DNA from: a virus
Lineage: Duplodnaviria; Caudoviricetes
Length of the DNA stretch: 28,302 bases
Virus record (IMG/VR): IMGVR_UViG_3300038552_000015
Span: 1 to 28,302 of that record
Strand: one strand, 5' to 3'
Made by a program: the position numbers and the translations under genes. The notes beneath the pieces were generated by a model. The model did not search any database. It saw nothing but the letters and a program-made list of their open reading frames with translations, and was not told the origin of the DNA. This document shows, piece after piece, positions 2,408 through 28,302 of the stretch (the first letter of the stretch is position 1; every line of letters starts with the position of its first letter).

Positions 2408-4563
2408 TGTCCGGTCTGCCAATCTTTGCGTTTCCAGAGCCTAGTGGCCCACAGCTAAGTGCTGGCCTGTTTGTTATTGATGTAAGTAGTACGACTAACT
2501 TTCGTGTACCTTTTACTCAGTTAGCAGCCGCTATTGCTGTTGGCGGCGCTGCCATTAACTTTAGCGCAGGCACCACAAGTGCCAATCTCCAGTCAGTAGT
2601 CTTTGGAGATGCTAATGGAGTTTCATTTGGGCTAAACGGCGGCACTATTACTGCTAGTGCTGCACCTGCGGCTCCTGCTGGGTCTATTTCTGCTGGCACT
2701 ACAAATGCAACTCTTGGCCAAGTAGAATTTTCCAATGCTAATGGTATTTCTTTTGGCGTTAATGGCCAAACAGTTACTGCTAGCCACAATGCTTTAACTA
2801 GTCAAAGTAATCAAGCACTTAGTGGCTCTAATGGGTCTTTTACTTTTCAAACTGCTACGTTTGGAAATTTGAATGGAATGAGTTTTTATACTTCCAATGG
2901 CTCTCTCGTTGGAAGTTATACTGTTCCTTCCATTCCATCGCTCACGCCATACTTTAGCAATACAAATACTACATTCAATGGAACGAACATCAGTGGGTCT
3001 CTTACCCACAATACTGATGGACTGCGGGTAGATCTCTCAGTTGCAGCGCCCGGCGGCGGTGGAGCAGTAAACTTTTCTGCAGGAACTACTAGTAACAATC
3101 TTCAATCTGTAGTTTTTAGTAATTCCAATGGATTTTCTTTTGGCTTGGACGGTAGTACTATTACAGGTGCTTATACTGTACCTACCCAATCTGTACAACC
3201 GGGCATTCAATCCATCAGTGCGGGCACTACAAGAATTACTACAGGAGAAGCAGTATTCTCTAACTCCAACGGTATTTCTTTTGGAGTAAATGGACAGACA
3301 ATCACCGGAAGCCACAATGGACTCACAAGCCAATCTAACCAAGCAGCAAGTGGACAGAATGGTAGCTTTACATTCCAAACTCTCGGATTTAGTAACGCTA
3401 ATGGAATCAGCTTTGGCACGAGCGCAGGCAACTCAATCACAGCTAGTCATAATGGACTTACGAGTCAAAGCAATCAGGCACTTAGTGGATCAAATGGCAG
3501 TTTCACTTTCCAAACTGCAACTTTCGGAAACCTCAACGGATTCAGTTTCTACACCTCCAACGGCTCATTAGTTGGTAGTTATACCGTACCATCTGTACCA
3601 TCTGTAACGCAATACTTCAGTAATACTGCTACTACATTCAATGGTACAAATATCTCTGGCTCGCTTACCATTAACACTAATGGATTGCGAGTTGATCTTT
3701 CTGTAGCTGCCCCCGGAGCAGCAGCCGAGGCGAATTGGCATCATCTACTTGGCGCCAATACTTCTGGAAACACCACGGCCAGTGGTTCTACTATTGGGTT
3801 TTCTGGAATTAATCTTACACTTTCTGGAACTAATGGAAGTGTAATTAATTTCAGTGCTCCCCCCACATCTAGTCTTTCTGCAATTACTAACATTACTATT
3901 GGTACTACTGGGTCTACTATTGGATTCAGTGTAGGGGCAGGTGGCGGTGGCGGAGGATTTACTGCTCCGGGATACCATCCATATGATGACTTAGTACAAA
4001 TAGTTGCTCAAGTTGGACAAGGATCTCTTATTATTGATCCTCAAAATCTCCCTAATATATCTTTTGACCGACTTGTTCTTGGACTACAGAATACCAATAG
4101 TTCCAACTCTTCTGGCTCCCATACACTTCGTTTCTCTGTAGGACTCTATACGCGAGATGCCAGTAGACTTTCCCTATTTACTTCCTTTACTGGCTCTACA
4201 GCAGTAACTCATTCTGGAACTGCTGGCTCTTACTCTTGGTATTCTGGAAACAGAATGTTTCCAATTACATTTGGTGCTACTAGTATTCCAGAAAATCGGT
4301 ACTGGATTGCATTCATTAGTTCTACCAGCACTGCTGGCGCCAATGGATCGTATTCGAATATGCTAGTTAGCAATATTAGTTCTAACTTTTCTGGGCAGTT
4401 TGGAACTGCGACTAATGCTACTAAGCAACCGCGCCTAGGACAAGGATTCTACAGCGCGTCAACTACTGCATTTCCTGCGTCTATTGCATTTAGCCAGATC
4501 AACGGAACTCATGCATCTGCTAGGCGTTTCCCTGTAATTGGATTTGGAAGCAGCACTTACTAA
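2407..4563 (+). CDS. Repeat-built fibre protein (tail or head fibre), rich in Ser/Thr/Gly/Asn
   Basis: 718 aa. Recurrent 'F.N.NG.SF..NG.T.T.S' units resemble trimeric beta-spiral shaft repeats, with Gly linkers and a roughly 200-aa non-repetitive C-terminal head. I count a single Lys and no Cys. Confidence 0.7.
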   Translation: MSGLPIFAFPEPSGPQLSAGLFVIDVSSTTNFRVPFTQLAAAIAVGGAAINFSAGTTSANLQSVVFGDANGVSFGLNGGTITASAAPAAPAGSISAGTTNATLGQVEFSNANGISFGVNGQTVTASHNALTSQSNQALSGSNGSFTFQTATFGNLNGMSFYTSNGSLVGSYTVPSIPSLTPYFSNTNTTFNGTNISGSLTHNTDGLRVDLSVAAPGGGGAVNFSAGTTSNNLQSVVFSNSNGFSFGLDGSTITGAYTVPTQSVQPGIQSISAGTTRITTGEAVFSNSNGISFGVNGQTITGSHNGLTSQSNQAASGQNGSFTFQTLGFSNANGISFGTSAGNSITASHNGLTSQSNQALSGSNGSFTFQTATFGNLNGFSFYTSNGSLVGSYTVPSVPSVTQYFSNTATTFNGTNISGSLTINTNGLRVDLSVAAPGAAAEANWHHLLGANTSGNTTASGSTIGFSGINLTLSGTNGSVINFSAPPTSSLSAITNITIGTTGSTIGFSVGAGGGGGGFTAPGYHPYDDLVQIVAQVGQGSLIIDPQNLPNISFDRLVLGLQNTNSSNSSGSHTLRFSVGLYTRDASRLSLFTSFTGSTAVTHSGTAGSYSWYSGNRMFPITFGATSIPENRYWIAFISSTSTAGANGSYSNMLVSNISSNFSGQFGTATNATKQPRLGQGFYSASTTAFPASIAFSQINGTHASARRFPVIGFGSSTY
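2779..3054 (+). repeat. Intragenic direct repeat, copy 1 (276 nt / 92 aa)
   Basis: ASHNALTSQSNQ...LRVDLSVAAPG; 84 of 92 aa identical to copy 2 by manual alignment. Confidence 0.9.
3442..3717 (+). repeat. Intragenic direct repeat, copy 2 (276 nt / 92 aa)
   Basis: ASHNGLTSQSNQ...LRVDLSVAAPG; same length as copy 1, with many synonymous differences. Confidence 0.9.
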
Positions 4564-27448: not shown

Positions 27449-27562
27449 GAATATGAGGGTTACTCGGAGCACTCTTCCCTCGCGTTATTGTCTGAGCGTT
27501 GTGTGCCAGATTGTCCACGGATGTTTTGGCCTCAATTAGTTTGCCGGATGTCCGTTACGCAG

Positions 27563-27764
27563 TTTGTGGGGTACTTCGTCCAACTACCTAGGAGAGCACT
27601 GCTTTCATTTTTGATGGGCTTAACTTCACCATCCCAGTGCTCTCTTAGGTAGAACCTCACAGCACGTTACTGCAAGGTTTGGCCTCTACCTAACTGGTTA
27701 CTGTGGTTCCAGTGTGCTTTTTATAATCCCACAAAATCTAGGTAGCTAGCCTAGAATAAGCACA
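27563..27764 (-). ncRNA. Candidate structured non-coding RNA downstream of the hammerhead
   Basis: 18-bp inverted repeat with one mismatch (27584-27601 / 27635-27652) enclosing GATGG/CCATC. Long-range TTTGTGGG/CCCACAAA (27563-27570 / 27728-27735). Also TCTAGG/CCTAGA, TGTGCTT/AAGCACA and ACTGG/CCAGT stems. The strand is inferred from the flanking genes. Confidence 0.5.
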
Positions 27765-27778
27765 GCATCTATTAAATT

Positions 27779-27858
27779 ACCAAGACGAGAAAGGGAGGAT
27801 ACAATCCATTTGTAACCCTTCCTCGTTTCGCTGGAATTTCACCAGCTCATCAGTTGGT
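27779..27858 (-). ncRNA. Type I hammerhead ribozyme
   Basis: The - strand reads ACCAA-CUGAUGA-GCUGG(UGAAAUU)CCAGC-GAAA-CGAGGAAGGG...CCCUUUCUCG-UC^UUGGU. It has the full catalytic core, stems I, II and III all pair, and the GUC triplet is at 27786-27784. Confidence 0.92.
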
Positions 27859-28302
27859 TTACAGAGCTTCGGAAAGAATCTTCTCTTCCTCGGCCAGCAG
27901 ACTGTCAACCCGATTGCTCAGGTATTCGTACACAGTCTGGTTATCTTCCATGCTGCCAGTGTTTGCAGCCCAGACAGCAAGCATCTCTTTAAGAACACCG
28001 AGAGCTTTCTTGTCATTGCGGCAGGGCGCAAATTTCTTCTGGAAAAGCTGGATATGCTTTTCGATCCGGTCAGCATCTTTGCCAGTGGCCGCCGCCATGA
28101 TTGCGCGGTAGTCAGCAGCAAAATCGTTCCAATCTTCGTCGCTGATACCAAGGCCAGCACGCTGCGCTTTTGGAATGCTGGCAATGACCGACCAACTAGC
28201 TTGCGACAGGTCAATCATTTCAGGCTTGATTTCAGCATCTGCCGGAAGTTTCTCACGCACTTCATTGATGACAGTGCGCAGACGCCCGTACACAGTATCA
28301 GC
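27859..28302 (-). CDS. Hypothetical helical protein, 5'-truncated
   Basis: The frame is open to the window edge (148 codons including the stop). It appears more GC-rich at third positions than its neighbours. Confidence 0.8.
   Translation of the reverse strand, partial: ADTVYGRLRTVINEVREKLPADAEIKPEMIDLSQASWSVIASIPKAQRAGLGISDEDWNDFAADYRAIMAAATGKDADRIEKHIQLFQKKFAPCRNDKKALGVLKEMLAVWAANTGSMEDNQTVYEYLSNRVDSLLAEEEKILSEAL

Follow-up and report, generated by a model that had tools for sequence, protein, structure and literature searches.

Hammerhead ribozymes of prophages cut polycistronic RNA in vitro and in E. coli (Perreault 2011, PMC3088659), and in the same paper type I phage hammerheads are proposed to process long phage transcripts. 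In PLMVd hammerheads, UAA triloops are described as paired with UGAGAU-like loops (PMC2632901). The role of the self-cleaving ribozymes of phages and bacteria has been called largely elusive (PMC6765202). Here we analysed a 28.3-kb stretch of DNA from an uncultured phage (28,302 nucleotides, called the window as a whole), which carries a hammerhead on its minus strand. This ribozyme shares core, topology and an intergenic phage context with the type I hammerheads reported in PMC3088659 and is one of the known phage and bacterial type I hammerheads (PMC3088659, PMC6155905, PMC6765202, PMC13725137), though it lies under the Rfam thresholds.

Genomic setting

The window is identical, over the 3.4 kb compared, to a 47,069-bp IMG/VR contig with terminal repeats (L005). 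Virion-type genes occupy the plus strand of the window; on the minus strand, a UvrD-like helicase (in L005) is encoded upstream of the ribozyme, and an exonuclease, a Sak4-like protein, a DNA polymerase and a primase are encoded downstream. The helicase ORF (L005:2-1201), which lies beyond the window, has a C-terminal SprT-like domain and thus holds UvrD_C_2 and SprT-like domains in one ORF. Because the DNA polymerase is 28–33% identical to the polymerases of EBPR podovirus 3, Aeromonas phage P5, Polaromonas phage Tiera and PaP2-like phages, the host of the window phage is likely proteobacterial. The ribozyme stands at the start of a 457-nt gap between the genes for a 220-aa and an 85-aa protein:

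27859..28302, minus strand: upstream gene (3′ part), encoding a 220-aa phage protein without assigned function; truncated by the window edge, complete in L005
27144..27401, minus strand: next gene, 85 aa, the first of the small genes before those for the exonuclease, Sak4-like protein, DNA polymerase and primase

The 220-aa protein had 67 matches, two of them the window's own. Its window part matched nothing in PHROGs and the complete protein nothing in Pfam; no relative was found in GTDB or among GenBank phages, the Atlas gave no informative match, and searching these three for the protein yielded no cultured carrier of the ribozyme locus. No sigma-70 site was found on the minus strand between 26500 and 28302.

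A type I hammerhead directly after a stop codon

The original prediction described an intact type I hammerhead beginning at the first base after the TAA stop codon of the upstream gene, and every claimed element was confirmed on the minus strand:

27859..27861, minus strand: UAA stop codon, ribozyme positions −8 to −6
27854..27858, minus strand: 5′ arm of stem I, ACCAA (sequence, fold)
27847..27853, minus strand: catalytic core CUGAUGA (sequence)
27830..27846, minus strand: stem II, GCUGG (27846-27842) with CCAGC (27834-27830), and loop UGAAAUU (27841-27835) (fold, covariation)
27826..27829, minus strand: core GAAA (sequence)
27786..27825, minus strand: long stem III hairpin with an inner helix, which would remain on the upstream product once cut (fold)
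27784..27786, minus strand: GUC triplet, with the predicted cut at 27784/27783, 75 nt past the stop (sequence and hammerhead consensus)
27779..27783, minus strand: 3′ arm of stem I, UUGGU, the first bases of the predicted 5′-OH product

The core CUGANGA, GAAA and NUH triplet that define the hammerhead class are all present, as are three covarying helices around the core, and the open stem I with loop-closed stems II and III gives the topology of type I. The minimum free energy fold of the segment was the three-way hammerhead junction (z −2.85), with mean pair probabilities of 0.73–0.87 for stem I, 0.90–0.98 for stem II and 0.94–0.95 for stem III in five contexts of 88–611 nt. A full type I descriptor found one site in the window, the ribozyme, and a site in 2 of 300 dinucleotide shuffles. 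Both UGA triplets of the core share the frame of the upstream gene.

In related phages stem I reads CCAA/UUGG, CUGU/ACAG, GCUGA/UCAGC or GUCGU/ACGAC, and stem II reads GCUGG/CCAGC or GCCAG/CUGGC; across the homologous loci, compensatory changes were found in all three stems. The assignment to canonical type I was thus borne out by elements, fold and covariation, and the hammerhead motif in the window is real. The sequence predicts cleavage between 27784 and 27783. The Rfam hammerhead models, which the original prediction had named as a check, all stayed below threshold on the minus strand: nothing matched the ribozyme at gathering score, RF00163 and RF02275 gave no match at E ≤ 10, and the best hit was a partial match to RF00008 (Hammerhead_3) at 18.5 bits (E 0.72; gathering threshold 48.5). 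Given the compensatory changes in all three stems at homologous loci, we attribute this miss to the models.

The homologous locus in related phages

Fourteen loci were recovered with an alignment of 66 homologous proteins as the query: the window's contig and 13 others, of which L159 repeats L158. A hammerhead lies 3′ of the homologous gene in the window, L154, L155 and L158/L159, with 5, 118, 182 and 44 nt, respectively, between stop and core, and none was found by pattern in L156, L157 or L160–L166. Each of the four carrier contigs has one evident hammerhead among its pattern matches, judged by eye, and always at the homologous site. The ribozymes of L155 and of a further locus introduced below (L152) may be weakened by two features: the pair at the base of stem II is an A.C mismatch, and loop II carries a long insert.

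This patchiness among close relatives, together with the scores below all Rfam thresholds, would fit a hammerhead that is inactive or selfish and does nothing for the phage. We consider that very improbable in view of the perfect core, the compensatory changes in all three stems across lineages and the sole evident copy per carrier contig at an unchanging site.

The additional pairing of stem I with the coding sequence is present in the minimum free energy fold of the window and is not conserved in relatives, the duplex between 3′ tail and coding sequence amounting to −7.0 kcal/mol in the window versus −2.7 and −2.4 kcal/mol in two relatives. Across the 58 family members defined below, such pairing was no better than with shuffled partners (p 0.27). 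It had also been suggested that a terminating ribosome could gate folding and so couple cleavage to translation; as a conserved coupling this did not survive the comparison, since the ribozymes of close relatives lie 118, 182 and 44 nt from the stop, and translation coupling is thus not a conserved requirement at the locus.

Two other structures were seen in these intergenic regions. Between stop and hammerhead, L154 (3729-3774) and L155 (3660-3705) share a conserved hairpin with inner pseudoknot-like pairing that is absent in the window; L154 (4172-4212) and L158 (4011-4050) share a stem with a common loop ending CUUACGGUGAUGAAA in intergenic regions that are otherwise different.

Terminator-like hairpins at the same site

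Distant relatives (37–43% protein identity) carry another kind of structure at the site. A purpose-written script called a hairpin with a U-tract no more than 200 nt from the homologous stop in every distant relative (7 of 7), compared with 25 of 135 stops of other long ORFs in these loci; the hairpins at the homologous stop begin at least 26 nt past it. The original prediction mentioned neither these hairpins nor the structured RNA downstream of the ribozyme. The script found no terminator-like hairpin in the hammerhead-bearing L154, L155 and L158 (0/3), nor in L156 or L157, and in the window part of stem III alone scored. A stricter second scan confirmed the hairpin of L165 and not that of L161. 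On an unrooted tree of 13 proteins, in which L160 forms a long branch, a branch (95/99) separates the terminator group from the rest, and two changes are required to explain the hammerhead. With no root, two changes and one long branch, we assign no direction to the replacement.

Together, these results make the site look like a conserved transcript boundary that is made in two ways. Counting against this reading are the close relatives L156 and L157, which have neither a hammerhead by pattern nor a terminator and yet keep module 1 of the downstream RNA described below.

Both L156 (1199-1245) and L157 (4067-4105), lacking hammerhead and terminator, have an H-type pseudoknot, recognized by eye, upstream of module 1. 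In the distant relative L162, a tRNA-like gene (3191-3275; Rfam, 46 bits) follows the terminator.

Stop codons at the 5′ edge of phage type I hammerheads

A scan for hammerheads of the same loop-II type gave 121 viral loci and, with a narrower pattern, 12 GTDB loci. These 133 matches formed 63 clusters, and dropping L204, L288, L302, L304 and L324 left a family set of 58 clear type I clusters. ORFs of at least 50 codons ended 4–5 nt before the core in 18 of the 58 and at 6–20 nt in 5; counted by stop triplets, 18 of 32 at offset 4–5 ended ORFs versus 6 of 115 at 6–30 (Fisher 6e-10). The 18 stop-abutting ORFs seem to be genuine genes: all of them had G more commonly at codon position 1 than at position 2. 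No two of the 18 upstream proteins were BLASTP matches of each other, so the layout recurs with different genes; PHROGs matched 4 of the 17 scanned. After related flanks were merged, 14 of 44 groups abutted a stop. In 8 further family clusters of the 58, the ORF runs on to the first UGA of the core, in the same frame as the window's UAA.

An independent sample was drawn with a general pattern over 3 of the 64 IMG/VR parts (131 loci; about 2,600 stretches estimated) and pooled with 5 loci of a GNRA-loop control scan. From 145 matches, 5 were dropped for short flanks and 28 for lack of a stem II or a type; the remaining 112 fell into 82 clusters of type I and 22 of type III, with types called by script and ORFs by length, so that a few assignments will be wrong. 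A stop lay between 7 nt before the core and its first UGA in 44 of the 82 type I clusters, with an ORF reaching that UGA in 16, compared with 0–4 of 82 in control windows slid upstream. In the matching window no type III cluster had such a stop (0/22), and widening the window gave one (1/22; Fisher 1.7e-5). Since type III cuts close to its own 5′ end, it is not a matched control for compaction. Codon bias supported 42 of the 44 stop-overlapping ORFs, and the predicted type I cut sites of this sample lie 34–88 nt past the stop. A stop at the 5′ edge of phage type I hammerheads is thus a general rule that covers about half of the sample, and the position first noticed in the window is no accident of that one sequence.

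The stop may also contribute to the fold. In the family set, A(−6) was present in 53 of 58 members and A/U(−7) in 55 of 58; A(−6) occurred in 17 of the 18 members with an abutting stop at offset 4–5 and in 36 of the 40 without one there. The RF00008 consensus reads 'uUa' in the corresponding position, next to a loop II of UGAAAU. The (A/U)A pattern is satisfied by UAA when the stop sits at offset 5 and by either UAA or UAG at offset 4, which together account for 17 of 18 cases; the remaining member has a UGA stop at offset 4 and has lost A(−6). In this loop-II subfamily, the stop codon therefore probably doubles as a tertiary contact with loop II, judging from these base frequencies. Position −6 is often G in other loop types, so the overlap does not depend on this single (A/U)A contact.

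These counts bear on the reading in which cleavage is gated by translation: terminating ribosomes would sit on stem I, the core and the (A/U)A contact; busy mRNAs would then stay joined to the genes downstream and idle ones be cut, and the overlap would have been selected as a switch. The sharp spike of stops at offsets 4–5, the excess of ORF-ending triplets there, the recurrence of the layout with unrelated upstream proteins and the one member that keeps a UGA stop at the expense of A(−6) all speak for it, as does the fold itself, since stem I fell to a probability of 0.0 when the footprint of a ribosome at the stop was masked. The overlap is nevertheless not kept at the homologous locus, 38 of 82 type I clusters lack it, the stops occupy several registers (−4, 0, 2, 4, 5, 6 and 7) with no single tuned geometry, and the distal pairing with the coding sequence is not conserved. 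Translation termination is also brief relative to the life of an mRNA. We hold selected gating to be unlikely, given how labile the overlap is among close relatives and how many registers are used; gating as the purpose of the site is not supported. Because a ribosome at the stop would block stem I, gating is physically possible as a side effect.

Several family members have further features nearby. L234 (660-837, minus strand) carries, one after another, a stop codon, a type I hammerhead and a tRNA-Leu(CAA), and its hammerhead is predicted to cut 6 nt ahead of the tRNA; L209, L223 and L272 lie near tRNAs or a tmRNA. L228, L261 and L274, and likewise L208, L241 and L283, have related downstream genes and hammerheads after unrelated upstream genes; in these six loci similarity begins about at the ribozyme, as if it marked a gene-exchange junction. 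Cultured Pseudomonas phages, among them phita81A (L001:4001-4029), share this core and stem II but combine them with a GUU triplet and a stem III that is short; the motif lies about 260 nt before a tRNA-Thr and is unannotated.

A structured RNA downstream of the predicted cut

Beyond the ribozyme, the gap holds an orphan structured RNA with three parts:

27694..27764, minus strand: module 1, P1 around hairpin P2 (UAGCUA loop), then P3 (covariation; model R2)
27584..27693, minus strand: central domain, with a 10-bp hairpin that is nearly invariant and a long helix that covaries and contains an A-rich bulge (covariation)
27456..27562, minus strand: probable second, expanded AGUAA pseudoknot module (by eye, less sure)

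The stretch 27764-27584 begins about 20 nt past the cut and is conserved in L154, L155 and L152, the last being the one new locus among three returned by a metagenome scan for this RNA. Both partners change in 16 of its 54 pairs, and pairing holds in 98.6% of cells versus 32–48% in slid controls, in four sequences that represent, three being close, about 2–3 lineages. P3 of module 1 has an AGUAA loop and a predicted pseudoknot, UGUGG/CCACA, whose pairs are invariant in the four sequences. Two competing copies of UAGGUAG can each pair with CUACCUA; this partner sequence of the long helix is thus present twice and covaries twice, and the alternative pairing of the upstream copy, seen by eye, was left out of the counts. 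The UAGCUA of the P2 loop (27747-27742, minus strand) is self-complementary and recurs in L154, L155 and L152 and differs in L156 and L157; it is a possible kissing-loop dimer site.

Model R2 of module 1 found L156, which was outside its training set (32.2 bits, E 2e-6), matched part of the L155 copy of the second module at 11.7 bits, and gave no convincing match among 63 further loci of the family, the best reaching 12.6 bits (E 0.45). Model R1 of the central domain found nothing significant in 11 loci. Pattern scans gave 107 and 37 viral matches, of which three known contigs alone scored as homologues. Rfam and ARAGORN returned no riboswitch, pistol, twister, HDV-like, tRNA or tmRNA match, only sub-threshold miRNA or snRNA hairpins, and the window contains no tRNA.

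Other candidates were set aside. On topology, the RNA was rejected as a pistol, twister, HDV-like, ZTP, c-di-GMP-I or tRNA-like element. The L113 group from a pattern scan looks like the opposite strand of a coding gene. The 51 matches of a loose pseudoknot-module descriptor in 853 kb are mostly chance and are not used as evidence. A terminator-like match at 27755-27737 is P2 of module 1; relatives do not preserve its U-tract, and a terminator is therefore improbable here.

The main task of the ribozyme might be to generate the 5′ end of a free-standing non-coding RNA (about 27783-27450), as phage ribozymes beside tRNAs do, the end of the upstream mRNA being incidental. The covariation of the downstream RNA is as expected for this reading. 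So is its spacing: the distance from core to module 1 (131–166 nt) is steadier than that from stop to core (5–182 nt) over four loci, which indicates that at this locus the ribozyme travels with the downstream RNA. The predicted cut before the tRNA-Leu in L234 offers a parallel and Theta ribozymes, as outlined in PMC10879173, a precedent. Against it, module 1 occurs without hammerhead in L156 and L157 and the hammerhead without modules in L158, the other family loci hold no convincing module 1, and the 3′ side has neither a second ribozyme nor a clear terminator, so that the RNA may instead be a long 5′ leader. We find release of a stand-alone RNA somewhat less plausible even than gating; our leading guess for the downstream RNA is a stabilising or regulatory 5′ leader of the replication genes, and a new ribozyme, a nuclease block or a switch within 27764-27456 is possible. 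A combined account, in which phage type I hammerheads are widespread stop-anchored and ribosome-gated cutters that use the stop as tertiary contact, split the RNA only if the upstream gene is untranslated and here release a pseudoknotted non-coding RNA, seems to us doubtful as a whole.

Proposed role

From the observed motif, its covariation, the stop-overlap rule and the terminator-like hairpins of relatives we infer transcription, cleavage, end protection and compaction in the following model, which we give a probability of about 0.6: the canonical type I hammerhead would be a self-cutting transcript boundary, probably filling the place that the terminator-like hairpin has in distant relatives. 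The steadier spacing of the core to module 1 than to the stop also speaks for this model, as do the prophage hammerheads that cut polycistronic RNA (PMC3088659). Hammerhead cleavage leaves a 2′,3′-cyclic-phosphate end and a 5′-OH end. The replication-side transcript would be cut 75 nt past the stop. Because type I cuts at its own 3′ end, stems II and III would stay with the upstream mRNA and give it a structured 3′ end with a 2′,3′-cyclic phosphate, like that of a terminated message; the downstream RNA would start with a 5′-OH and, about 20 nt on, enter a folded leader of ~310 nt. Transcription would continue past the hammerhead, unlike at a terminator.

A terminator must fold while the polymerase passes and hence stay clear of ribosomes. 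Nothing of the kind would keep a hammerhead off the stop, because its folding can wait for the ribosome to leave and transcription continues. Genome compaction could then push the hammerhead against the stop, where UAA or UAG suits the (A/U)A bases that are needed, whereas a type III ribozyme, cutting near its own 5′ end, would leave a bare or stop-less mRNA end. The stop at about half of the sampled phage type I hammerheads and not at type III, with the hammerhead found where relatives have a terminator-like hairpin, suggests that type I ribozymes are makers of read-through 3′ ends, and these two results give the role of the ribozyme a testable shape. The orphan pseudoknotted RNA is a separate lead, worth pursuing because new ribozyme classes have been found near known ones.

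Comparison with known systems

The examples in PMC3088659 are often clustered around genes, whereas the window's contig has one evident copy; Legionella drancourtii LLAP12, listed in Dataset S1 of that paper, has the window's stem II signature (L192). The words 'stop codon' do not occur in its main text, nor 'stop' in the searched portions of its supplements. Titles and the openings of abstracts, a coverage that is thin for the subscription literature, revealed no earlier publication on the stop-codon rule, on the contrast between types I and III or on the terminator replacement.

With the type III hammerheads of the PLMVd type (RF00008; Dufour et al., PMC2632901), the window's ribozyme shares two features: a loop II resembling UGAAAU, and a UAA/UUA element that lies five pairs up stem I. 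Relative to them it is a circular permutation, with stem I open and stem III closed, in a DNA phage instead of a rolling-circle RNA, and the stop codon can on this account be regarded as a remnant of loop I. Rho-independent terminators and ribosome termination structures (RTS; Chemla et al. 2020, PMC7518266) likewise place a stable structure right after the stop and mark a boundary; they stop the polymerase or block re-initiation, whereas the hammerhead would cut the RNA chemically while downstream transcription continues. Theta (HDV-like) ribozymes next to phage tRNAs (PMC10879173) also set a self-cleaving phage RNA, here a predicted one, beside a structured RNA; their fold is different, and the neighbour of the window's ribozyme is no tRNA, of which the window has none, but an orphan RNA on the 3′ side of the cut. 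The kind of hammerhead was thus already known, and the processing of polycistronic RNA had been proposed and seen in vitro; what seems new is the layout at the stop codon.
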